NCBI GenBank assembly: GCA_015064185.1
Contig: SVSS01000004.1
Location: 71,347-135,346 of the forward strand
Reading direction: 5' to 3'
DNA length: 64,000 nt
Source: Oscillospiraceae bacterium
GTDB taxonomy: Bacteria > Bacillota > Clostridia > Oscillospirales > CAG-272
Both the position numbers and the translations under genes were made by a program. The notes under the pieces are model-generated. The model did not search any database. It saw only the letters and a list, made by a program, of their open reading frames with translations, and was not told the origin of the DNA. Every line of letters begins with the position of its first letter. Position 1 is the stretch's first letter. Positions 10,564 through 59,101 of the stretch are shown in pieces.

Positions 10564-11742
10564 TCAAGGGGATACGGAAAACTCCGACACGGTGGCAATA
10601 TCCTCCTCAAAGGCAGCGGTACACAAAAGCGTAACGCCATCCTCATCCACTACTACCTCAACCGTTGTGGCAAGCAAGGTACGCGCTTCGCTTGCGGTGG
10701 CAAGGCGAGCGGCAAGCTCGCGATGGGCAAGTGAGAGTGCCTCGGTTGCAGTGCGCCTTGCGGCTTGCTCAGTATATTCGTAATACTGTAAAACCGAAAA
10801 ACCAAAGGGCAACGTATGCGCGCCTGCGTAAAATTTTTTCTCATACTGTATTATATCACAACTGTTTGTTATATTTCTAGTGTTTTTAAAAACTTTTCCG
10901 TCAAAACCGAAAAAAGAGGCCTCGATTTCACAAAAAACGCGCCCCGTCAAGAGCTTTTCATGATAACCAAAGGGTACGCTTACGGTAATTGTTTCCTCGG
11001 TGCGTGCCAGCACCTGCCCCGAAGCACGCGTCACACGAAAGCCACCCGCCTCGGTATCAATGATCCCCGATGCCAGCACCTGCCCCGCGCGCACATACTC
11101 CCCTGCCTGTACCAAGCACTCCCCTTCAAAGATCAAGGGCAACACAACGGCACCGTCCTTTTTTGCAACAAGATTTGCAGGAGAATTGGGTGCCTTTGTC
11201 ACTTCCGGCTCGGCTTCTCTGATCTGCACATGTGCGACCGTTCCCATGAGATTCATAGTGGCATATGCAATGCGACTGTCGCTTTGGCGCAAGGCAAGCG
11301 TTATGGCATCACCGTCAAGGCGAGGCAAAAAGCTCCCACAGGAAAGGCCGACTTCGGCAAGCTCCTCCTTCACCTCACGCTCAGTGAGCATCTCACACCC
11401 CGTAACATCCACATCCCACACAAAAAGATTTGCCGCCACCAAAAGCACAAGCGCCGTAATCGTTCCAAAGGCGATACCCGGACGGTGGATAAAGCGTAGC
11501 CACAACGAAGGAACGCCACCTGTTTTACAAACCGTAAGAGCAATCTCCCTTTGTGCGGCAAGCGCCATAACGCGCACCGCAGAAAAACGGCTAAAGCGGC
11601 AAATAACATCCTTGCTTTTTCCTGCGCGCCTTGTGCCCCTTGGGGTGACACCAAGCACGCGGCAGATCTCAAAAAAATCAGTCATTGCCGCCACGGGAAT
11701 ACAAAGATCGGTATAGCCAATGAAAAAAAGGAATGCGTTCAT
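10564..11742 (-). CDS. yqfD: sporulation protein YqfD
   Basis: 392 aa with a central TM segment. It overlaps the preceding yqfC by 4 nt and sits in the conserved yqfC-yqfD-phoH order. Confidence 0.8.
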   Translation of the reverse strand: MNAFLFFIGYTDLCIPVAAMTDFFEICRVLGVTPRGTRRAGKSKDVICRFSRFSAVRVMALAAQREIALTVCKTGGVPSLWLRFIHRPGIAFGTITALVLLVAANLFVWDVDVTGCEMLTEREVKEELAEVGLSCGSFLPRLDGDAITLALRQSDSRIAYATMNLMGTVAHVQIREAEPEVTKAPNSPANLVAKKDGAVVLPLIFEGECLVQAGEYVRAGQVLASGIIDTEAGGFRVTRASGQVLARTEETITVSVPFGYHEKLLTGRVFCEIEASFFGFDGKVFKNTRNITNSCDIIQYEKKFYAGAHTLPFGFSVLQYYEYTEQAARRTATEALSLAHRELAARLATASEARTLLATTVEVVVDEDGVTLLCTAAFEEDIATVSEFSVSP

Positions 11743-34600: not shown

Positions 34601-34940
34601 AAACACGCCCGCGCGCGTGGAAAAATCCGCAGCGCTCGAGAGCGCGGCGGGGCGACTGAAGCGCGAGGGACTTTTACCCGACAGCGCCGAGCTGCTGCAT
34701 GCCATTTCAAGATCGGGCAGCACCGCCATTCTCGGTGCGCCCACAACACGTAAGAGCAAGCTTGTTTCAAGCGAGGGATTTACCGCGCTTTTTGAGGAGC
34801 TTGCCACGACTGTTTCAAGCATTGCAACAGACATGAAGAGCGGCAGTGCAAGCATTGCGCCTACCGAGCACAACGGGCAGACCGCCTGCAAATTCTGCGC
34901 ATACGCCGCCGTTTGCCGCGCAGCCGACAAGAAAAAGTAA
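31659..34940 (+). CDS. addB: helicase-exonuclease AddAB subunit AddB (RexB)
   Basis: 1093 aa with an inactivated-helicase fold and a C-terminal RecB-type nuclease with Fe-S cysteines (CRFAYYC ... CKFCAYAAVC). Located immediately upstream of addA. Confidence 0.9.
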   Translation: MIRFLYGGNTAGREAALLRHINENIKAGEKAILLVPEQETVTAERLMVEALPPAAQLTFEVSNFTRLANRTFRAVGGLSYRYATPAASALIMWKTLRAIAPQLTQYAAHAASDLRLTDRMLSAIAQFKAYCITPEVLTETAEALPEGDPLKAKLQDLALVLATYEAELHTSFADAADDISRATALIAANKHLFSDTHIYISSFTDFTAQELALIKVLMEISPSLTVALPLASRAHEGIHLASATATAKRLIRIAKALDKRIFEEVLPAEKPKTALDYIHRDLFDMNAEPAPVGLAEGDEITLTVAANPYEEAEHAATVIAKAVREGARYRDFVVVVRDASNYIGIIDAALEKEGIPFYLAEKTDITVRPLIKLLLFALRIVRYNWQKEDVVGYLKTGLTGIDADDINFFEEYAEVWHISGRATLEKPFTMNPDGYTERTSARAARILEGANRARAALVPPLAAYFEALDSATTAKDLAAATYHFLASIGVPEAMKARAAAHLVAGERREAEEDTRLWGVVIDALEVLASTLAGEPLDIASFADALMLLFNSTDIGSIPTSADEVMIGSAATLRTAPPRYAIVMGLNDGIFPKIASDTGLLSDAEKRRLAALGIELSADLATVASDELFYVHRALTLPQEKLYLSYSKAASDGRAAEPSIAITRIKALFPQLHETDFEAMPASEKIFTREAALEHLRELSPTEAQALFSLLKEDVEQASKIENLLLSVQDTAASVSAKRAAGLFTPNSFNPTGLEKFVSCRFAYYCSKILRLREEPTDTLDAAAVGTFIHYVLENTLAAITRAQKPFADYTEAEIDAIVKESLTAYRAYLVEAGGGITPRAEGLITRLSSLARIVVGALIAEFADSDFAPAFFELDLSREGTGAPIALPDGTKIPLSGKVDRVDWYRGEDNKVYLRVADYKTGRKTFKREDIKKGYCLQMPLYLLALCNGTHPQLAKKLGLPENTQFEPAGVTYLSTAVGNENTPARVEKSAALESAAGRLKREGLLPDSAELLHAISRSGSTAILGAPTTRKSKLVSSEGFTALFEELATTVSSIATDMKSGSASIAPTEHNGQTACKFCAYAAVCRAADKKK

Positions 34941-34953
34941 AGGAGGATATCAA

Positions 34954-37900
34954 ATGGCACGCAATTGGACCCCCGCGCAAAGATCTGCGATCGATGAAAG
35001 AAGCCGTACCCTTTTGGTATCCGCCGCCGCAGGCTCAGGCAAAACAGCGGTACTGACCGAGCGCATTATCAGCTCACTCACAGACCCCGAAAATCCAACT
35101 GACATCTCACGCCTTTTGGTGGTGACCTTTACCCGCGCCGCCGCCCAAGAAATGCGCGCGCGCATTGCGCGTGCCTTGGGAGATGCCATAGCACTTTACC
35201 CCAATCATACGGGGCTGCGCCGCCAGCTGATGCTGCTGGGCAGCGCAAAAATATGCACCATCGACTCCTTTTATCTCGATCTGGTGCGCGCTAATTTTCA
35301 AGAAGCAGGCTTTTCCCCCTCCTTTCGCTTAGCAGATGAGGGCGAGCTTCTTTCCCTGCGGCAGGACACCATGAATGCCGCCATTGACCGCATGTATGCC
35401 GCACACCCCGAATTTGTTGCGGTTGCCGACCTGTTTTCCGACGTGCGCAACGAGCGATCCTTAACCGACACGCTCTTAAAGCTTGAAGAAAAGCTGCAAA
35501 AGCTGCCCGAGGGCCTTGAGCTTCTCCTTCGCTCTGCCAAAGAAAACGAGGAAGCCTATCAAGCGCCCTTTTCAAGTGATTTCGGAAAGGTACTTTTCGG
35601 TGCGCTTGACAAAACGGTATCAGACGGAATTGAGCTTTACGATACCGCTCTTTCCATGATGACCGCCGAGGAGTATACCGACAAGCTGCAAAGCAAATTC
35701 GGCAAGGCTTACAGTGAAATGCTGGAAAGACTGCAAAGCATAAAGCATGCGCTTGATGCCCAAAGCACCGATGACCTCTCCCACCTTCTCATCGCGCCCT
35801 TGACCGAGCGTGTGTCCTCGGCAAAGCTGCCGCCCTGCAGTGAGGATTTTGCCCTGAGCGCCGAGGCTTGCAAGGCATTTCGCGAGAAATGGCGCGCCAC
35901 CGCCGCAACGCTTGGTGTATTTCACACCGAGGAGATCCGCGCGGGTGGCACCGAGGCGGCAGAGCTTCTGCGCCTGACCTATCTTGTGCTCGCTGATTTT
36001 GACAAAAGCTACCGCGCCGCAAAGCGCGAAAGAGAGGTTGCCGAGTTTGGAGATATTTCCCGTGCTGCCTATCATCTGCTAATAGACAAGGACGGCAAGC
36101 CCACCTCGCTTGCAAGCGCTCTTGCCTCTTCCTTTGATGCCGTTTATATCGATGAATATCAGGACGTGGATGCGATGCAGGATGCCACCTTCCGCGCCAT
36201 TTCAACACCGCGCAATCGCTTTATGGTAGGCGATATCAAGCAAAGCATTTACCGATTTCGCGGCGCTGACCCGGCTGTTTTTGCAGGCTACCGCGGCGCA
36301 TTTCCCGACCTGCAGGAGGCCAAGGCAGAAGACACTGCCGCCACGGTCTTTATGTCAAACTGCTTTCGCTGTGATGAAAACATCATCAAATTTTCAAACA
36401 CCGTTTCGGGATATCTTTTTGCAAGATCGGCACAAAGCATCGGCTACAAAAGTGAGGATGATCTTTGCTTTAGCAAGGCTCTGCCCCGCCCCGATTACAC
36501 CTCTCCCAAATGCCGCGTGCTGATCTATGATGACAAAGCACAGGAAGGCGCCTCTGACGCCAAACAGGATGAGAATGAAACAAGCACCGTGATCGATGAT
36601 GCCGAGGCAAAAATGATCGTAAAGGAGATCAAGCACCTGCTCTTAAGCGAAAGAAAAGCGGACGGCACACGCATCACCCCGGGTGATATCGCCGTGCTTG
36701 CGCGCGGCTCTGCCTTTGCCGCTCCCCTTGCAAAGCTTTTAAGGCAGGCGGGGATCCCCGTAAACGACACCTCTCGTGAAAACTTTTTTGAGAACCCTGA
36801 GGTGCTTTGCATGTATTCACTCCTCGCTGTGATCGACAACCCTTTCCGTGACGTTTACCTCGCGGCTGTGATGCGCTCTCCCTTTTTTGGCTTTACCCTT
36901 GAGGAGCTGGTAAGCATTCGCACCGCCACCGACTCCTCTCTTTCCCTTTGGGAGGCCACAAAGGCTGCCGCCGACATTCTGCCCGAAAAGGCATTGTGCC
37001 GCCGCATTAACACCTTTCTTGCAAAGCTTGCGCAGTACCGTGCCAAGGCAGAGCTTTTACCCGTTGATAAGCTGCTTCGCTTTCTGTACCGTGATACGGC
37101 AGTGCTCTCCTTTGCAGGTAATGGCACGGGCGAGGATCATGCATACAAAAACAAGCGACAAAATCTTTTGCGCCTTTACGAATATGCGCGCTGCTTTGAA
37201 GCAGGCGGCTTTAAGGGGCTTTATCGCTTTGTGCGTTATGTTGAGGATATCATGCAAAACGATACCGAAATGCCAACGCCCGAGGGCCCGCGCGATGCTG
37301 TATCTCTTATTACCATTCATCACTCCAAGGGGCTTGAATATCCCGTTTGTTTTGTAGCAACCACGGGCAAGACCTTTAACGCCGATGACTTCAAGGAGCC
37401 TTTGCTTCTTGACGGTGTGCTTGGATGTGGCACACGCGTGCCGAATGTTGGTGCATTTTCCCGCGCCAACACCTTTGCGCGCGAGGCGATAAAGGAGCGC
37501 TTAAAGCAGCTCTCGCTGGAAGAGGAGATGCGCGTGCTTTACGTTGCCATGACACGCGCAAGAGAGCGCCTTTACATTACGGGAAAGCCACGCTACGGCA
37601 TGAAAAACGTGCAAAAGCACATTGCGCTTGCCACCTGCCCCGCAACCACTCATTTCGAGCTGCTTGGCAACTCCTACCTCGAGTGGATCCTGTTTGCGCT
37701 TGAAAAAGCCGAGCACAGCGCGTTCTGCGAGGTAATTACCGTGCACCCCGAGGACCTGCTGGAGCAGGATGCCCCGTCCTCCCCCGCCACTGATGACGGC
37801 GATAAGGCCGTTGAGGAAGCCGCATATCAAGCAACAAGGGAGCAATTTGCAAAGCGCTTTGATTTCACCTATCCCGCCGCGCATCTCACCCGCCTGCCCG

Positions 37901-38607
37901 CAAAGCTTTCGGTTTCCCGCTTAACACCCGAGATCCTTGATGTTTACGACAAGGAATCGATTGGCGAAGCGGCTTTAAGGGACCCTGACGTTGAAACGCT
38001 GCTGCACACCTTTGAGCGCACGCCGCAATTTGAAAAAGACACGCAAGCTACCCAACTAAGCGCCGCCGAGCGCGGCACGGCAACGCATGAATTTTTGCAG
38101 TTTTGCGATTTTGCGCGCGCGAAAAACGATCTTGATAACGAAATGGAGCGCTTGATCGAGGCACGCTTCCTCCCCCCCGAGGCGCGCGATGCCATTCGCC
38201 ACGAGGAGCTGAAACGCTTTTTTGTAAGTGATTTTTACAAAGCTCTTGAAAACGCGCGTGACATCCGCCGAGAAACACGCTTTAACGTGTTTTTGCCCGC
38301 CGCCGATTTCACCGAGAACGAGGAATTGAAAGCACAGCTTAAGGATGAAAAGCTGCTTGTACAAGGTGTCATTGACCTGTTTTTCACCGATGAAAACGGC
38401 AATTTGGTGCTTTGCGATTACAAAACCGACCGCTTGCCAAAAGAAGCAATGAAAGACCCCGCGCTTGCCGCAAGCTTTCTGTTTGCGCGTCACAAGCAAC
38501 AGCTTTCTTACTATAAGCAGGCTTTAAAAGCAATCTGCGGAAGAACACCCGACAAGACCGTGATCTATTCTCTGCCCCTTGGTGAGGCACTGGAAGAAAC
38601 ACTGTAA
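34954..38607 (+). CDS. addA: helicase-exonuclease AddAB subunit AddA
   Basis: UvrD/Rep motifs (AAAGSGKT, DEYQDV) and a C-terminal RecB nuclease (GVIDLFF...DYKTD). ATG 34954 after AAAGGAGGA. The track's upstream extension overlaps addB. Confidence 0.93.
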   Translation: MARNWTPAQRSAIDERSRTLLVSAAAGSGKTAVLTERIISSLTDPENPTDISRLLVVTFTRAAAQEMRARIARALGDAIALYPNHTGLRRQLMLLGSAKICTIDSFYLDLVRANFQEAGFSPSFRLADEGELLSLRQDTMNAAIDRMYAAHPEFVAVADLFSDVRNERSLTDTLLKLEEKLQKLPEGLELLLRSAKENEEAYQAPFSSDFGKVLFGALDKTVSDGIELYDTALSMMTAEEYTDKLQSKFGKAYSEMLERLQSIKHALDAQSTDDLSHLLIAPLTERVSSAKLPPCSEDFALSAEACKAFREKWRATAATLGVFHTEEIRAGGTEAAELLRLTYLVLADFDKSYRAAKREREVAEFGDISRAAYHLLIDKDGKPTSLASALASSFDAVYIDEYQDVDAMQDATFRAISTPRNRFMVGDIKQSIYRFRGADPAVFAGYRGAFPDLQEAKAEDTAATVFMSNCFRCDENIIKFSNTVSGYLFARSAQSIGYKSEDDLCFSKALPRPDYTSPKCRVLIYDDKAQEGASDAKQDENETSTVIDDAEAKMIVKEIKHLLLSERKADGTRITPGDIAVLARGSAFAAPLAKLLRQAGIPVNDTSRENFFENPEVLCMYSLLAVIDNPFRDVYLAAVMRSPFFGFTLEELVSIRTATDSSLSLWEATKAAADILPEKALCRRINTFLAKLAQYRAKAELLPVDKLLRFLYRDTAVLSFAGNGTGEDHAYKNKRQNLLRLYEYARCFEAGGFKGLYRFVRYVEDIMQNDTEMPTPEGPRDAVSLITIHHSKGLEYPVCFVATTGKTFNADDFKEPLLLDGVLGCGTRVPNVGAFSRANTFAREAIKERLKQLSLEEEMRVLYVAMTRARERLYITGKPRYGMKNVQKHIALATCPATTHFELLGNSYLEWILFALEKAEHSAFCEVITVHPEDLLEQDAPSSPATDDGDKAVEEAAYQATREQFAKRFDFTYPAAHLTRLPAKLSVSRLTPEILDVYDKESIGEAALRDPDVETLLHTFERTPQFEKDTQATQLSAAERGTATHEFLQFCDFARAKNDLDNEMERLIEARFLPPEARDAIRHEELKRFFVSDFYKALENARDIRRETRFNVFLPAADFTENEELKAQLKDEKLLVQGVIDLFFTDENGNLVLCDYKTDRLPKEAMKDPALAASFLFARHKQQLSYYKQALKAICGRTPDKTVIYSLPLGEALEETL

Positions 38608-38624
38608 CAAAAAGGAGTTACATC
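38608..38624. repeat. left half of a 17-bp perfect inverted repeat (CAAAAAGGAGTTACATC)
   Basis: Starts 1 nt after the addA stop. Its exact reverse complement lies at 40144-40160. Confidence 0.9.
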
Positions 38625-38667
38625 ACTTTCTCTGTTGTCCTTAACGGAGAATTTGCGTGCACAAAAT

Positions 38668-38699
38668 ATCGGCAGAGATATTGTTTTCTCTGCCGATTT
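38668..38699 (+). terminator. hairpin downstream of addA (inside the islet); overlaps a possible DUF559 promoter
   Basis: ATCGGCAGAGA / TCTCTGCCGAT forms an 11-bp stem with an 8-nt loop, then TTTG. TATAAT at 38704-38709. Confidence 0.55.
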
Positions 38700-38739
38700 G
38701 TATTATAATGGAAACGATAAAAACTTTGGAGGAGTAAGT

Positions 38740-39117
38740 ATGTCGCTTGATTACAACGAAAAGAATATTACTCTTGCAAAAAATCTTCGTAAAAATGCAA
38801 CACCTCAGGAAAATCATTTGTGGTACGATTTTTTATCAAAACATGAAATCAGATTTCAAAGACAAAAAGCCATAGACAATTTTATTGCGGATTTTTACTG
38901 CCACAAAGCCAAACTGATCATAGAAATTGATGGGTCACAGCATTATACCGAAGAAGGCAGACAAAAGGATGAATTCCGCACGGAAATACTTGAAGGGTAT
39001 GATCTCAAAGTCATAAGGTTTACAAACCGACAAATCAACACAAACTTTCGGGGTGTCTGCGAGTATATCGATGCCACCGTAAAAGTCTCCCTCCGAGAGG
39101 GAGGGGGACCGCGTTAG
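38740..39117 (+). CDS. DUF559 (Vsr-like PD-(D/E)xK) endonuclease-domain protein
   Basis: LRKNATPQENHLWYDFL...RFQRQKAIDNFIADFYC...LIIEIDGSQH...VIRFTN matches the DUF559 pattern. ATG 38740 after GGAGGAG. The last roughly 10 codons and the stop lie in a GC-rich palindrome. Confidence 0.85.
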   Translation: MSLDYNEKNITLAKNLRKNATPQENHLWYDFLSKHEIRFQRQKAIDNFIADFYCHKAKLIIEIDGSQHYTEEGRQKDEFRTEILEGYDLKVIRFTNRQINTNFRGVCEYIDATVKVSLREGGGPR

Positions 39118-39216
39118 CGGTGGAAGGAGCCTGCGTAACTTTAGTTTTGGATAAAACTTATTGTATCGCGCTCTCCCTCAGTCGCCTACGGCGCCAGCTC
39201 CCTCCCGGAGGGAGCC
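39086..39216. repeat. nested GC-rich palindromic element (two inverted ~45-nt modules around an AT-rich spacer)
   Basis: Module A is 39086-39130 and its imperfect reverse complement is 39170-39216. Each module folds into two local hairpins. Details are under findings. Confidence 0.8.
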
Positions 39217-39319
39217 TTAGGACACGCGCAACTATAGGGGTATGGGCTTTGCCCGAAGCATTTGTAATACAACGGCGAAACTGGCGATAAATAAGAATTT
39301 GACAAAGGAGTGTGATTTT

Positions 39320-39721
39320 ATGAAAAAGAGATTTTTATACTTAATTCTTCCAATTACTACATTGATTTTGGAAATCTTACCTTATGGGGCAGTATGTAAT
39401 TTTGCACGCCCCGAAGGTGAACCTTGGAGAAAAACATACTCATACTTCAATTTAACACCTTTCGGTTATGCGAATTTTGCTCCATTTCTTACCGCATTAG
39501 CAACTTGTGTTATTTTCATATTATTATTGGTTTATTTGTTTACAGACAAACCTCGTATACTGTCTCTCACAAAAGTTTTTCTTTGCATAGGTGCAGCAGT
39601 GTCATTATGTCCGTTGCTCTATGGCATTAAATTCTTCTCCGTTTTGGGTGCAGTGATTACGGCATCTCTAATTGCTGAATTGGTCTTACTATTGATTGTT
39701 TCAAAGCAAAGCAAAACTTGA
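39320..39721 (+). CDS. hypothetical 4-TM membrane protein
   Basis: ATG 39320 after AAAGGAG. 133 aa with four hydrophobic helices, low GC, and no recognised family. Confidence 0.6.
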   Translation: MKKRFLYLILPITTLILEILPYGAVCNFARPEGEPWRKTYSYFNLTPFGYANFAPFLTALATCVIFILLLVYLFTDKPRILSLTKVFLCIGAAVSLCPLLYGIKFFSVLGAVITASLIAELVLLLIVSKQSKT

Positions 39722-39735
39722 ATTTGGAGATTATT

Positions 39736-39939
39736 ATGCGTAAGTGTGTTAGATGCAATATAGCAATGATTGAAAATTGCGGTATCAAAGTAAAAGGCGC
39801 AGCCTATGGTTTAGTCTTAACCGATGACGAAAACAAGTGGTGGAGTGGAAGAATGGATCAACCGAAAGTGGCTATTTGTCCTCAATGCGGAGAGGTTTCC
39901 ATATATTTGGAAAATGTCGATAAACTGAAAAATAAATAA
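39736..39939 (+). CDS. hypothetical small Zn-ribbon protein (CxxC...CxxC)
   Basis: ATG 39736 after GGAGA. 67 aa with CVRC...CPQCG. Lies 14 nt after the 4-TM gene. Low GC. Confidence 0.55.
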   Translation: MRKCVRCNIAMIENCGIKVKGAAYGLVLTDDENKWWSGRMDQPKVAICPQCGEVSIYLENVDKLKNK

Positions 39940-39972
39940 ACAAATTCCAACTTGTCTAACAGAATAAAACAA

Positions 39973-40006
39973 ACCCCGACAGACCTAAAAATTTAACTGT
40001 CGGGGT
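39973..40006 (+). terminator. hairpin after the Zn-ribbon gene
   Basis: ACCCCGACAG / CTGTCGGGGT forms a 10-bp stem with a 14-nt loop and a weak T-rich tail. Confidence 0.55.
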
Positions 40007-40043
40007 ATCTATTTGTTTTCTGCGGATCAAATTTTGCTTGTCC

Positions 40044-40091
40044 GTAGGGACGTTCTGTGAACGCCCGCGGGTGAACGCAGTTCGCCCCTAC
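40044..40091. repeat. GTAGGG...CCCTAC imperfect palindrome with an internal GTGAACGC direct repeat
   Basis: GTAGGGACG (40044-40052) pairs with CGCCCCTAC (40083-40091). GTGAACGC occurs at 40057-40064 and 40071-40078 around CCCGCGGG. Confidence 0.7.
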
Positions 40092-40143
40092 CATGTGTTA
40101 GGCAAGTATTTTATGATTTCTCCGATAAGAACATCACCCATTG

Positions 40144-40160
40144 GATGTAACTCCTTTTTG
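40144..40160. repeat. right half of the 17-bp perfect inverted repeat (GATGTAACTCCTTTTTG)
   Basis: Exact reverse complement of 38608-38624, 10 nt beyond the sbcC stop. Confidence 0.9.
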
Positions 40161-40170
40161 CTTGCACAAA

Positions 40171-42810
40171 TTATGCATCATATTCTGCACGCACGGTGCT
40201 ACCCGTTTGGGTACGGGTAATGACCAGCTTATTTGTAATACGCTCGCGCAGCTCGGCTACGTGTGAGATCACGCCGACCGTGCGCTTTCCGTCAGAAAGT
40301 CGGCAAAGCAGCTGCATCGCTCGCGTGAGCGTATTCTCATCAAGCGACCCAAACCCTTCATCAATAAACAGCATATCAAGACGCACGTTTCCGCTGTTGT
40401 TTTGCACCACGTCGGAAAGCCCTACGGCAAGCGCAAGCGATGCCATAAAGCTCTCACCGCCCGACAGGGTGCTCACGTCACGCCACCTGCCCGTGCTGCG
40501 ATCCAGAACCTCAAGGTCAAGCCCTGTTGCCCGCCTTAGATCACGCGCGCTTTCGCGACAGCGCAATACAAAATTTCCGTCGGTAAGCAGCTGTAAGCGG
40601 CGATTTGCCGCAACGATCACTTCTTTAAAATAGTAGCGCTGCACATAACTTTCAAGTGAGAGCTTTTCGCGCCCATTGGCACCCCTGCCGCCAACTGTGC
40701 GGCTGAGTGTATCGATAACACTCCACTCAGCATTTAACTTCTTCGTATCGCGCGCGACCTCACACAGTGCTGCACTTGCTCTTTCGTTGAGTGCAAGCAA
40801 GCGTTCAATAGAAGACAATTCTCGAGCAAGCACCTCCTCAGCCTGCGCAAGCTCCTCTTGGCGCAGCTGCATTTGGGCAATATCGACAGGTGCGCGCCCC
40901 GCAACGGTATGCTCAAGCTCTGCTATCTTGCCACCCATATGTGCCGCTTGCGCATCGGCTTGCTGCAGCGCCAAGCGCCGCACCTCAAGCTCTGCCTCAT
41001 CCAGCAGAGCCGCACGGTATGCCTCATAAGAAACAAACTCCGCCGCCAAAAGCCGCGCGTCAAAGTCAGATCTTGCCGCTTCCATGGCATGCTGTGCATC
41101 ACTCACGCGGGTGTTGGCTGCCGCAAGTGCTGCCGTGGCAGCTGCAAGCTCCTCAGCAGATTGCTTATGCACAGCGGTGGCATTGGCGAGCTCGTTTTTC
41201 AAATTCTCGCACAAGCGCAGCTTTTCAGCCAAGCTCTTTTCAATGTCTTTTTCCGTTTCGGGCGTGATTTCCAAAACACCCTGCTCAAAAAGCAGTGCCT
41301 CGGCGGCACCAACTGCCTCACTTGCAGCCTGCTGCTCTGCCACCGCCACGGCACGCGCACGCTCACATACGCTCCGCTTTTGCTCTGCTCCTTCCAGTGT
41401 TTTTTGGTCGGGAGTGCTTTCAGCCTGCACGGCAGGTGTCGGGTGAGCAAGAGAGCCGCAAACAGGACAAGGCTCACCCTCACAAAGTCCTGCCGCAAGC
41501 AAGCCCGCTTGACCGAGAAAATAGTGCGCGCGCAGCTCTGCGCAATGCTCCTCGGCGGTCTTTGCCGCATGTACGGCGTGCGAAAGTGCCTCGTTTGCCG
41601 CAAGCAAGCGTTCTTTGGCGCCAACAAGCCTTTCAAATGCCACCTGTGCGCCCTCAAGCGCGCGGATCTCGGATTCCAGCAAAGGGAGACCTTCTCCCTG
41701 CAAGGTTGCGTCAGATAGCTTCTTTTTGGCATCGCGCTCCGCGCTCTGCTTCAGCAGCAACGCTTCCATAGCGGCAGCTTTAGCAGAAAGTGCCACGTCG
41801 GCTGCTCTCTTTGTTGCCTCAAACACCTTTTCCTGCGCGCGAATGTGCAACGCCTTTTGTGCAAGCGCAAGATACGCGCGCTCCCTCTCACGCCCCATTA
41901 CAGCCTCGGGCGAAAGCTCGTTTGCACCGCGAAGCGATTGCAGTGCCGCTATGGTGTCGTTTAAGCTTTTTCCTTCTTTTAAGTCAAGCTCCGCCTTGCC
42001 GCACGCCGCTCTTACGCGCTTTGCCTGTGTGCGCTTTTCCTCGATCGCGCTTGTAAGCTCGACACAGTAAAGCGCAAGCATTTCGGCAAGGGCTGCAGGG
42101 TCCTCTGCGGCATTCTTTTTGGCGCGCAAAAAGGTTTCAAGGCGCGCATCACTCTCCTGCATTTGAGCAGAATTTGCCGCGATCTGCGCGCGTGCGGCAA
42201 GCTCCTCGCGCTTTTTACTGCAGGTTGCCGCACGCTCCTTTAATAGTTGCTCAGCACGCGCATACAGCTCGGTATGAAACAAATGCCCAAACATTGCCTT
42301 ACGCTCAGCGCTTGTGGCATTGAGAATACGCAAAAAATCGCCCTGCGCGATCATTACCGTTCTTGAAAACTGTTGGCGGTCAAGCCCCACGATCTCGCAT
42401 ATACGCGCATCCACATCCTCCATGCGAGAGAGCACACGGTCCGCCCCCTCCTCAATGAGAAGCGCTGTTGCAGGCGAGAGCGTAGTGCCCTCACCTCTTA
42501 GCTTGGGACGCTCAAATTCGGGGCTTCGTTCCACGGTATAGCGCCGCCCACCCTGCGAAAAGGTAAATCTGACAAAGGTCTTTGTGTCCGCTTTGGCAAA
42601 ATCCGAGCGAAAGGACTTGCCGCTTCTGCGATCCTTGCCGCCGCTGGCTTCGCCGTAAAGCGCAAAGGAAATGGCATCAAATATACTAGTTTTACCCGCG
42701 CCCGTTTCACCTGTAAGCAAAAACAAGCTCCCCAAAAAGGGTTCGAAATCAATAACAGTTTGCGCGGCAAAGGGGCCAAACGCGGATATTTCAAGTAAGA
42801 TCGGCTTCAT
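40171..42810 (-). CDS. sbcC: exonuclease SbcCD, ATPase subunit SbcC (Rad50-like)
   Basis: Walker A GETGAGKTSIFDAI, long Ala/Glu-rich coiled coil, zinc hook CPVCG, signature LSGGESF, and Walker B LFIDEGFGSLD. Confidence 0.92.
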   Translation of the reverse strand: MKPILLEISAFGPFAAQTVIDFEPFLGSLFLLTGETGAGKTSIFDAISFALYGEASGGKDRRSGKSFRSDFAKADTKTFVRFTFSQGGRRYTVERSPEFERPKLRGEGTTLSPATALLIEEGADRVLSRMEDVDARICEIVGLDRQQFSRTVMIAQGDFLRILNATSAERKAMFGHLFHTELYARAEQLLKERAATCSKKREELAARAQIAANSAQMQESDARLETFLRAKKNAAEDPAALAEMLALYCVELTSAIEEKRTQAKRVRAACGKAELDLKEGKSLNDTIAALQSLRGANELSPEAVMGRERERAYLALAQKALHIRAQEKVFEATKRAADVALSAKAAAMEALLLKQSAERDAKKKLSDATLQGEGLPLLESEIRALEGAQVAFERLVGAKERLLAANEALSHAVHAAKTAEEHCAELRAHYFLGQAGLLAAGLCEGEPCPVCGSLAHPTPAVQAESTPDQKTLEGAEQKRSVCERARAVAVAEQQAASEAVGAAEALLFEQGVLEITPETEKDIEKSLAEKLRLCENLKNELANATAVHKQSAEELAAATAALAAANTRVSDAQHAMEAARSDFDARLLAAEFVSYEAYRAALLDEAELEVRRLALQQADAQAAHMGGKIAELEHTVAGRAPVDIAQMQLRQEELAQAEEVLARELSSIERLLALNERASAALCEVARDTKKLNAEWSVIDTLSRTVGGRGANGREKLSLESYVQRYYFKEVIVAANRRLQLLTDGNFVLRCRESARDLRRATGLDLEVLDRSTGRWRDVSTLSGGESFMASLALAVGLSDVVQNNSGNVRLDMLFIDEGFGSLDENTLTRAMQLLCRLSDGKRTVGVISHVAELRERITNKLVITRTQTGSTVRAEYDA

Positions 42811-47378: not shown

Positions 47379-47454
47379 GCTGCTATAGCTCAGTCGGTAG
47401 AGCACGTCATTGGTAATGACGAGGTCATCGGTCCGAATCCGATTAGCAGCTCCA
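47379..47454 (+). tRNA. tRNA-Thr (anticodon GGU), CCA encoded
   Basis: Cloverleaf by hand: acceptor GCTGCTA/TAGCAGC, D stem GCTC/GAGC, anticodon stem CGTCA/TGACG with loop TTGGTAA, and T stem ATCGG/CCGAT with loop TCCGAAT. Confidence 0.9.
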
Positions 47455-58668: not shown

Positions 58669-58986
58669 TTATTGTGCGTTTTTTCTTGCTTCGAAGCAAG
58701 CGCTGCAGTAAACGGGTCTGTCGCTAGAGGGCTGGAAAGTAACCTTTGCCTCGCCGCCGCACTCTGCGCAGGTGGTAATGAAGTACTCTCTTTGTGCCTT
58801 GCCGGCGTTCTTCTTTGCATCGCGGCAAGCTTTGCAGCTCTTGGGCTTGTTCAGAAATCCTTTTTCCTTATAAAACTTTTGCTCGCCGGCGGTGAAAACA
58901 AATTCATTGCCGCACTCTTTGCAAACAAGAGTTTCATCCTCAAAGATTTCGTCGGTTGCGCCAACCAGGGTGATTTCTTCGTTCAT
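58669..58986 (-). CDS. double Zn-ribbon protein with an FxFTAGEQxFYxxKGF motif (uncharacterised widespread family)
   Basis: ATG 58986 after GAGGTAAC. CKECG...CKAC and CAECG...CSAC. 105 aa. The track's 46-aa N-terminal extension is unsupported. Confidence 0.75.
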   Translation of the reverse strand: MNEEITLVGATDEIFEDETLVCKECGNEFVFTAGEQKFYKEKGFLNKPKSCKACRDAKKNAGKAQREYFITTCAECGGEAKVTFQPSSDRPVYCSACFEARKNAQ

Positions 58987-59101
58987 TGTTGTTACCTCAC
59001 TTTTTAAATTGAGAATGATTTTGCCCTTAGACGGATTTCCACCGACACCTTTGAGAAATAAATTCAACGCTCTTGTTAAGCTACCGGGGCATATAGATGC
59101 G

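Follow-up and report, generated by a model that had tools for sequence, protein, structure and literature searches.

The closest described concepts for the element reported here are the REPtrons and TIRtrons (PMC3733652; REP, repetitive extragenic palindromic sequence; TIR, terminal inverted repeat) and the systems in which REPINs are paired with a REP-associated tyrosine transposase (RAYT) (PMC3116915, PMC5581495). In 2013, REP sequences with a GTAG tag were reported only from Proteobacteria, Cyanobacteria, Chloroflexi and the Planctomycetes-Verrucomicrobia-Chlamydiae (PVC) group (PMC3733652). The left end of the insertion sequence (IS) IS200 is reported to hold a terminator (Beuzon 1999, via PMC13548323), and terminator-like hairpins are enriched upstream of IS200/IS605 elements, according to the same source (PMC13548323). 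Palindromes and terminators are targeted elsewhere as well, by IS elements that insert in REPs (PMC1525189; ISPpu9, PMC12288879) and by group IIC introns, which insert next to terminator stem-loops (PMC1702495). Here, we analyze a 1.5-kb AT-rich segment between the convergent genes addA and sbcC of an Oscillospiraceae bacterium, within a window of 64 kb (the whole stretch of DNA analyzed, from contig SVSS01000004.1), and identify it as one copy of a modular cassette family that very probably entered the loop of a transcription terminator. In the literature searched we found no description of this family, or of insertion into terminator loops, and the family is apparently undescribed.

An earlier note, made from the sequence alone, had drawn attention to a 17-nt inverted repeat that brackets the segment, and the positions it gave for both repeats and for the addA and sbcC stop codons are correct. 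The 17-mer CAAAAAGGAGTTACATC (38608-38624) stands directly 3' of the addA stop codon (TAA, 38605-38607), and its reverse complement (40144-40160) lies 10 nt from the stop codon of sbcC (40171-40173, minus strand). An inverted-repeat search of the window returned the pair as 100% complementary with a spacing of 1,519 nt. The note had held that such a match is not expected by chance. At up to 3 mismatches the 17-mer occurs three times in the 64 kb, against 0.14 expected from shuffled sequences, and none of 100 shuffles reached three. It is thus not a common word; a common word scattered through the genome was one of two outcomes that the note had named as refuting its reading. The 17-mer is unique to this locus in the window and in the first 80 addA loci collected. 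The segment itself has a GC content of 34-44% over most of its length, versus 50-58% in the flanking genes. Pfam searches of the window proteins recovered AddA, AddB, SbcC, SbcD and, inside the segment, DUF559 (PF04480, E = 3e-28, 125 aa). The remaining features described in the note could likewise be located: a -10-like box (TATAAT) and predicted terminator-like hairpins, two GC-rich palindromic elements (G1 and G2), and a pair of genes for a protein with about four hydrophobic segments and a protein with two CxxC motifs. No transposase, integrase or recombinase gene is present in the window copy of the segment, in agreement with the note.

The third match to the 17-mer, with 3 mismatches, is at 58922-58938; it adjoins a borderline tRNA-like match, presumably by chance. 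That tRNA-like match (59022-59090, minus strand) scores 30.4 bits against a threshold of 29, and the window also holds a clear tRNA at 47379-47451 (71 bits).

The C-terminal 400 residues of AddA were scanned against one genome per species, which returned 80 loci (numbered L001 onward, as are the loci collected later), and the window proteins were mapped onto these. In four close relatives (L001, L002, L004, and L005), addA and sbcC are convergent and only 53-101 bp apart. The closest of these, L001, is a Clostridia metagenome-assembled genome (MAG) from sheep colon; its nucleotide identity to the window is 93.9% on the side of addAB and 87.8% on that of sbcCD. Its junction (L001:11201-11260) reads TAA-CAAAAAGGAGTTACATC-ACTTG-GATGTAACTCCTTTTTG-CTTGCACAAA-TTA. 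The two 17-mers are thus 5 nt apart, and L001:11204-11242 folds as a single hairpin (-26.6 kcal/mol) between the two stop codons, with a 5-nt loop on an 11-bp stem, an A-run before the stem and a T-run after it; this is the empty site that the earlier note had predicted. The hairpin is a predicted bidirectional intrinsic terminator common to addA and sbcC, and L002, L004, and L005 have different A-run/stem/T-run hairpins at the same junction. Of the L001 loop, the window keeps ACT... to the left of the insert and ...TG to its right; 1,514 bp have thus been added within ACTTG, and no host base was lost. The break may lie at AC^TTG, ACT^TG or ACTT^G, and the junction fits a target duplication of 0-2 bp; because T or TT is common to the element and the loop, the element ends are ambiguous by ±1-2 nt. 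The main proposal of the earlier note, an insertion into the loop of an ancestral addA/sbcC terminator hairpin, is therefore correct; the 17-mers are 1,519 bp apart and the net insert is 1,514 bp. That a mobile cassette of an identified family inserted into the addA/sbcC terminator loop is, in our judgment, very probable.

The 17-mers are the two halves of the host terminator, since they are present without the insert in L001 and are unique to this locus. The note had also suggested that they are the terminal inverted repeats of an undescribed element, and indeed the repeats match perfectly and coincide with the two borders of the AT-rich segment. However, both 17-mers are present in L001 with no element between them, which refutes the suggestion, and all other copies of the family differ in these outer flanks and share the inner ends. 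If the L001 hairpin were instead read as an excision footprint, the hairpins of L002, L004, and L005 argue against it. A second suggestion, that recombination at the 17-mers inverts the segment as a phase-variable switch, would fit a perfect inverted repeat around a promoter-containing segment; we give it practically no credence, as about 16 independent metagenome contigs with the insert all have one orientation relative to addA and sbcC, no recombinase is encoded nearby, and the repeat is accounted for as a split terminator. It is also highly improbable that the islet is ancestral and was precisely deleted from L001. DNA can be lost when inverted arms of 17 nt recombine, or through replication slippage across a hairpin, but a deletion between inverted rather than direct repeats would not restore a hairpin with a 5-nt loop. 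Moreover, the four relatives without the insert are successively more distant, the GC content of 34-44% departs from the 50% of the host, and copies 95-98% identical to the insert are found at other loci.

A reading of the 17-mer as a shared ribosome-binding region (GGAG, followed by ATG on the minus strand) was considered and rejected, as L001 shows that the two copies form one hairpin. A 17-codon open reading frame (ORF), MGDVLIGEIIKYLPNTW (40141-40088, minus strand), begins 9 nt past the GGAG in the right 17-mer and extends into G2; it is probably fortuitous. In two more distant relatives (AddA identity 68-70%; L003:9530-10880 and L026), addA is followed by more than 1 kb of GC-rich REP-like sequence, and the sbcC match in L003 covers residues 1-519 only; this may be another invaded or decayed junction.

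The search of public assemblies proposed in the earlier note revealed further copies. Exact-protein look-ups located the same DUF559 and membrane proteins after NfeD/Band_7 genes (L088, L093, and L094) and in a contig with a major facilitator superfamily (MFS) gene on the left (L087). These copies are 95-98% identical to the insert at the DNA level and begin at the same left end (TTCTCT...), and their outer flanks are unrelated. The cargo at the Band_7 site varies, with the membrane/zinc-ribbon pair in L088 and a 114-aa lipoprotein-like ORF in L093-L095; in L235-L237, this half-hairpin of the host is taken up by a third variant, whose end type differs. The half-hairpin AAAAATCACCCCG after the Band_7 gene (L093:5170-5230, L088:540-600, L235:3436-3500) is in this way followed by three variants with differing ends and cargo, which indicates repeated insertion, or frequent replacement through recombination, at one site. 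A more distant addA locus (L065, AddA 38% identical) has a related unit after addA, in which the hairpin/promoter region matches at 93%, G1 at 79% with compensatory changes, and the terminator and REPIN at 82%; this unit lacks DUF559 and carries a different cargo ORF.

Two further observations concern these loci. One exact Band_7 allele (L238, L240, and L242) occurs with the same 300-nt spacer and terminator before three different genes, for a flavin reductase, MgtC and a xanthine permease, the contexts diverging within the terminator T-run. L087:1480-3174 is a hybrid, with the MFS gene and an L099-type left end, and a right part that is 98% identical to the window insert and runs into the window's sbcC junction; it is either a recombinant of two copies or a MEGAHIT chimera.

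Metagenome contigs were then scanned with the hairpin/promoter motif TTTTCTCTGCCGATTTGTNNTATAATGG, a 28-nt pattern with 26 specified bases. This yielded 100 related loci with diverse cargo in gut metagenomes, and the motif often lies at a contig end, as would be expected of a repeat that breaks assemblies. The order of elements is the same across the family: host flank, left end (LE), an optional GTAG-tagged REP, the hairpin TCGGCAGAGA..TCTCTGCCGA followed by TTTGT and TATAAT, and a slot; then the leader GGGGTATGGGCTTTGCCC..CCTTTGTAATACAAAGGCGAAACTGGCGATAAA, a ribosome-binding site (RBS) with one or two cargo ORFs, CAAATTCCAATTTGTCGAAC, the terminator CCCCGACAG..CTGTCGGGG, TTTGTTTTCTGCG, an optional REP or REPIN, and the right end (RE). 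The predicted promoter, of sigma-70 type and overlapping the terminator-like hairpin, is kept in 100 of 100 copies, in part by construction, as it lies within the search pattern. Three left-end types are interchangeable (A, TTTCTCTGTTGTCCTTAACGGAGAA; B, TTCTCTCTGCATTCTTAGCGGAGAA; C, GGCTGGTTCTCATAAGGATGTTTAC); in type C copies the inverted arms measure 19-80 nt and a REP adjoins both ends. Among the 92 copies that could be scored, the slot holds G1 (37 copies), a REPIN-like doublet that we call G3 (17), an ORF of 162-185 aa (13) or DUF559 with G1 (7), and the other 18 are unclassified, about 9 of them with G1 variants. The cargo ORFs are very diverse and comprise small membrane proteins, helix-turn-helix (HTH) regulators, a GNAT-like protein and many of no recognised type; a few may be host genes that lie beyond a truncated unit. 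The insert is therefore one copy of a large modular cassette family of gut Clostridia rather than an orphan islet.

The features of the window copy are listed in Table 1. An inner inverted repeat, TGTTGTCCTTAACGGAGAA (38633-38651) against 40118-40136, lies 7-8 nt inside the 17-mers with 16 of 19 positions complementary, and belongs to the insert and not to the host. The outermost 5-8 nt of the two ends are not complementary, so that the repeat is subterminal, and the two ends fold independently. The predicted bidirectional terminator of the element, kept across the family, folds at -20.0 kcal/mol on the plus strand and -21.1 kcal/mol on the minus strand. G2 is the sole element of its kind in the window, and homologous doublets are found in L065 and many family copies. 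Searches of Rfam with the insert (E ≤ 5) and with the whole window gave nothing for G1, G2 or the leader, with matches at chance level only, and plasmid and phage collections gave no real match. The two cargo ORFs belong to no family in Pfam, NCBIfam, PADLOC or PHROGs.

Table 1. Features of the addA/sbcC junction and of the inserted cassette (positions in the 64-kb window).
Feature	Position	Strand	Description
addA	34846..38607	+	Pfam UvrD-helicase/UvrD_C/PDDEXK_1; upstream gene, its terminator split
Host terminator, left half	38608..38624	+	A-run CAAAAA and stem GGAGTTACATC; perfect 17-nt inverted repeat
Inserted element	38627..40141	+	1,514 bp net, window versus L001 empty site; left ends of the family begin TTTCTCTG or TTCTCTCTG
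Left end, LE type A	38628..38651	+	Imperfect hairpin TTCTCTG..CGGAGAA; same end at loci with unrelated flanks
Terminator-like hairpin	38668..38697	+	11-bp perfect stem, then TTTGT; -20.6 kcal/mol; kept across the family and in plain RAYT loci
Element promoter (predicted)	38681..38709	+	-35 TTGTTT 38681-38686, 17-nt spacer, -10 TATAAT 38704-38709; read from sequence
DUF559 (Vsr-like PD-(D/E)xK) nuclease gene	38740..39117	+	125 aa; last ~10 codons lie in the 5' arm of G1
G1	39082..39218	+	GC-rich palindromic element; covariance model match 148.7 bits
Leader	39237..39291	+	GGGGTATGGGCTTTGCCC..TTTGTAATACAA..GGCGAAACTGGCGATAAA, upstream of cargo RBS; kept in copies with G1, G3 or RAYT
Cargo ORF 1	39320..39721	+	133-aa membrane protein, ~4 hydrophobic/transmembrane segments
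Cargo ORF 2	39736..39939	+	67 aa, two CxxC motifs (zinc-ribbon-like)
Cargo slot 3' boundary	39941..39960	+	CAAATTCCAAYTTGTCKAAC; partial mirror of AAGAATTTGAC at 39293-39303
Bidirectional terminator of element (predicted)	39966..40019		Stems CCCCGACAG 39974-39982 and CTGTCGGGG 39997-40005; T-rich runs on both strands
G2	40044..40091		REPIN-like doublet of GTAG-tagged hairpins in inverted orientation, GTAGGGACG...CGCCCCTAC
Right end, RE type A	40114..40141	+	Hairpin TGATTTCT-CCGATA-AGAACATCA, then CCCAT; same end in L161, L137, L112
Host terminator, right half	40144..40160	+	Stem GATGTAACTCC and T-run TTTTTG
sbcC	40171..42810	-	Pfam AAA_23 and SbcC_Walker_B; convergent gene, had a common terminator with addA

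The cargo slot lies between AAGAATTTGAC (5', 39293-39303) and the near-palindromic CAAATTCCAACTTGTC (3', 39941-39957); these motifs are kept across differing cargos, and may be recombination boundaries for cargo exchange. A homologue of cargo ORF 1 with 49% identity (L077:3653-3988) is an ordinary chromosomal gene with host-like GC content and no zinc-ribbon partner, which suggests that cargo ORF 1 was captured from a host gene family.

The flanks of the other copies point to the same kind of target as at addA/sbcC. A run of at least five A residues ends 7-25 nt before the left end in 58 of 75 distinct left flanks (77%), versus 8.3% of random 40-mers from the same contigs. Right ends were located by anchoring on the 3' module; fuzzy right-end matches within RAYT genes were rejected, as the sequence coding for YIYENP resembles right-end type C. 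Of the 20 copies with both an anchored left end and a 3' module, six (L109, L139, L154, L170, L195, and the window) have host flanks complementary over 16-19 nt. L154 and L170 are one locus, so that complementary flanks were obtained at five independent sites; mismatched flank pairs as a control had a mean of 8.4, a 99th percentile of 14 and a maximum of 18 nt. The hairpin that holds L139 has a stem (AACCCCGACA/TGTCGGGGTT) matching the terminator of the family itself, which suggests a nested insertion. Elsewhere, cassettes stand after Band_7 and MFS genes, and related units outside the LE/RE frame after tRNA-synthetase, TrkH and YajC-cluster genes. The insertion sites are thus alike in predicted hairpin shape and not by sequence homology, and the case for loop insertion as a rule of the family is strong but indirect. 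Left neighbors are co-oriented with the cassette in 45 of 57 cases, a count from which nothing follows, since at convergent junctions both orientations of the cassette yield the same outcome. The earlier note had remarked on the location of the insert between two DNA-end-processing machines. It is indeed located there, but this most likely reflects the type of target, a bidirectional terminator at a convergent junction, as other copies follow unrelated genes.

The DUF559 gene of the window copy has 7,033 homologues at E ≤ 1e-10, of which the top 120 have identities of 83-98% and, in most cases, lengths of 125-127 aa. The 13 of these that were fetched mostly end in ...SLREGGGPR or a close variant, and the DUF559 stop codon therefore tends to fall in the 5' arm of G1. 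As 85 of the 92 scored copies are without it, DUF559 is an optional module and not the defining gene of the family. DUF559 with G1 is also found outside the LE/RE frame, directly after host genes (L206:4001-4470, L216:3430-4030, L221:3501-4190, L222:3501-3990) and as a tandem duplication (L196:1-1200), and some of these units keep only the family hairpin/promoter and the CCCCGACAG terminator. The pair looks like a separate selfish module that landed in the slot of some cassettes. We considered whether DUF559 could be a free-standing homing endonuclease, with the insert spreading by cleavage of empty alleles and gene conversion. The gene encodes an intact Vsr-like nuclease by sequence, with weak PHROG matches to homing endonucleases; it sits between conserved genes; DUF559 with G1 is very abundant, has a fixed junction to G1 and also occurs on its own; and the mosaicism of the copies shows frequent recombination. 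We nevertheless consider homing improbable, since DUF559 is present in 7 of 92 copies only, while the rest share these ends and this type of site, and L065 has the frame without the gene. In addition, the sites are alike in hairpin shape only, and homing into non-homologous loci would not work.

G1 consists of inverted arms of about 20 nt, two internal hairpins and a central stem, the loop of which is AT-rich and variable. Compensatory changes affect the arms as well as stems P3 and P4. RNAalifold preferred local arm hairpins over a long-range P1, and the two folds are not separable because the arms are palindromic. G1 could be a structured RNA in the 5' untranslated region of the cassette, or a DNA-level analogue of a REPIN. 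In several copies (window 39082-39218, L065:11374-11513, L049:1973-2108, L075:11360-11489, L078:1991-2154) it spans about 135 nt with a four-stem, cloverleaf-like layout. Four of the five strong G1 matches in 1.2 Mb of addA-centered loci lie directly 3' of addA, co-oriented and within about 250 nt (L065, L075, L078, and the window), and the lineages with G1 after addA have an AddA identity of 35-53%. A functional link to addA/sbcC was judged less likely than the tendency of addA to end at a convergent junction with a bidirectional terminator.

A candidate for the enzyme that moves the cassettes is found in the slot of sister copies. The ORF of 162-185 aa present in 13 of 92 copies matches Pfam Y1_Tnp (4.6e-6) and NCBIfam NF047646 REP_Tyr_transpos (82.7 bits, cut-off 80), with 21.6 for the IS200 model NF033573. 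By these profile matches it is a RAYT, a tyrosine transposase of the HUH type, and it is the only transposase-like gene seen in the cassette frame. The window copy is non-autonomous, as sister copies hold the RAYT in the slot where it has DUF559 and G1. Plain RAYT loci (L223, L232) have the hairpin/promoter module as their native 5' region, and REP or REPIN sequences adjoin the cassette ends, which are asymmetric and have subterminal hairpins. Enzymes of the HUH type cleave single-stranded DNA, in many cases within hairpin loops, and AT-rich flanks favor cruciform extrusion, which would explain a preference for hairpins with A- and T-runs. We tentatively propose, with confidence that falls a little short of even, that the family derives from REPtron/TIRtron-like RAYT loci and that its copies were moved in trans. 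A RAYT-type enzyme would act on single-stranded DNA of the cassette copies, and the cassette would integrate into the exposed loop of an extruded terminator hairpin. G3 would be a REPIN-like remnant of a RAYT in the slot, and DUF559 and the membrane/zinc-ribbon pair would be passengers and not mobilizing machinery.

The RAYT genes of the family (L146, oriented copy 11570-11597 and 11704-11731; L127, L174, L177, L179, L184) contain both REPIN arms in their own coding sequence. These are inverted repeats of 26-30 nt, perfect in most copies, each with GTAG and a hairpin, and they flank the HUH motif. The arms vary between alleles with complementarity kept, and are translated as ...VGANCVRP... and ...GRPQVAPT....

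Several observations weigh against movement by a RAYT into hairpin loops. There is no transposase anywhere in the 64-kb window. Three exact RAYT alleles that were looked up each occur at one locus, in a plain REP-RAYT layout without LE or RE; this is the behavior of domesticated RAYTs and lends no support to autonomous, IS-like mobility. The LE/RE type does not follow the REP type inside the RAYT gene, and no conserved tetranucleotide, as in targeting of the IS608 type, stands 5' of the left end (CAC, GCC, AGA, ACA, CGC and others are found). The junctions of the window (TT), L195 (GC) and L154 (GC) fit a 2-bp target duplication and equally none; a 2-bp duplication, if present, would fit a DDE enzyme better. 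As for the target, the complementarity of the flanks is degraded in L150, L161, L175, L169, and L065, and weak or absent in several complete copies, possibly through further insertions or cut contigs. Finally, the window and L001 are the only true pair of filled and empty sites found: no second pair emerged from BLAST of all family left flanks against all collected loci, or from look-ups of Band_7 orthologues, where contigs with the identical protein carry another family variant at the same half-hairpin and an 89% orthologue has a different terminator.

These observations bear on a different mechanism, in which the cassette is a non-autonomous element of the MITE (miniature inverted-repeat transposable element) or MIC (mobile insertion cassette) kind. 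A DDE transposase, for example an IS30- or IS3-like enzyme that prefers palindromes, would act in trans and recognize the 19-25-bp LE/RE repeats, the RAYT being a passenger. The inverted ends are real and come in three interchangeable types, in keeping with this mechanism. On the other hand, no DDE transposase is found in about 100 family copies or in the cargo slots, where ORFs do not exceed 250 aa; the outermost 5-8 nt of LE do not pair with those of RE, the repeat being subterminal and the ends self-folding as in IS200/IS605; and the hairpin/promoter module is native to RAYT loci. We regard a DDE mechanism as rather unlikely, and it remains a serious rival because RAYT alleles are single-locus genes, end and REP types are uncoupled, a target tetranucleotide is missing and a 2-bp duplication is possible.

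For the host, the consequence of the insertion is that the 17-mers, now 1.5 kb apart, no longer fold locally as a terminator. Transcripts reading through from addA would meet the hairpin inside the left end of the element (38668-38697, -20.6 kcal/mol, then TTTGT), and those from sbcC would meet its bidirectional terminator (39966-40019, -21.1 kcal/mol on the minus strand). The element appears to insulate itself and to replace the function that it disrupts, judging from the predicted folds. We infer that the insertion is nearly neutral for the host, because these predicted hairpins would now terminate the addA and sbcC transcripts. Sites of this kind disrupt no gene, and the element brings predicted replacement terminators for both neighbors.

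If the family integrates into terminator loops, its target is a structure (A-run/stem/loop/stem/T-run) and not a sequence, a specificity that we did not find in the literature searched. It would also provide a mechanistic reason for the long-known placement of REPs downstream of genes and at convergent junctions, and imply a wider role for RAYT-type enzymes. A further step, that these are a new class of hairpin-loop-targeting elements from REP/RAYT loci, in which a RAYT moves units of 0.6-1.6 kb into terminator loops, we hold to be doubtful. If it were true, the RAYT, so far seen as a domesticated single-copy gene that disperses only REPINs of about 100 nt, would also move promoter-leader-ORF-terminator units, and gut Clostridia would have a dispersed, integron-like system that shuffles small accessory genes at transcriptionally insulated safe harbors. 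A corollary, by analogy, is that DUF559 with G1 may be a second nuclease/palindrome pair comparable to RAYT and REPIN. A structure-guided, safe-harbor integration system with its own expression cassette would be of interest for engineering. For those who annotate MAGs of gut Clostridia, the family is of practical concern, as it breaks metagenome assemblies, makes hybrid junctions (L087) and adds spurious C-terminal tails to ORFs (...SLREGGGPR).

Compared with known systems, the L001 site is an ordinary bidirectional rho-independent terminator, with its A-run, 11-bp stem, 5-nt loop and T-run between stop codons, and the window differs in that the hairpin is split by 1.5 kb. Like the IS elements that target REPs and the group IIC introns, the cassette uses an intergenic hairpin as a safe harbor. 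However, those are IS3/IS110-type elements or retroelements with their own enzymes or ribozyme, whereas the cassette has no reverse transcriptase or ribozyme (no Rfam match at E ≤ 5) and no DDE/DEDD gene; group IIC introns, moreover, insert after the hairpin and the cassette inside its loop. With integron cassettes it shares small size, dependence on a promoter, diverse ORFs exchanged at conserved boundaries, and palindromic sites. It differs in having no integrase, no attC architecture and no array: the cargo lies between short motifs and not upstream of an attC site, and each unit has its own promoter and terminator and is dispersed singly. MICs and MITEs are likewise bounded by TIRs, lack a transposase, carry passenger genes and form many copies that break assemblies as repeats, but the present family prefers hairpin loops and has a built-in expression cassette with cargo exchanged at conserved boundaries. 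IS200/IS605 elements have related Y1 HUH transposases, asymmetric ends with subterminal hairpins and, upstream of the gene, a terminator-like hairpin that lies just within the left end. The cassettes depart from these in the lack of a target tetranucleotide 5' of LE, in true inverted-repeat ends and in cargo genes, and the enzyme of the sister copies is of the RAYT clade (82.7 bits for NF047646 versus 21.6 for NF033573). The likeness is closest to REPtrons, TIRtrons and REPIN-RAYT systems, with GTAG-tagged hairpins in inverted doublets (G2 and G3), a RAYT that sister copies hold in the homologous slot, type C ends that are long TIRs including a REP, and a niche 3' of genes and at convergent junctions. 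In contrast to these systems, the window copy is without a RAYT, the RAYT ORFs of the family hold both REP arms in their coding sequence, and the units carry a promoter, leader, variable cargo and terminator and are split-inserted in terminator loops.

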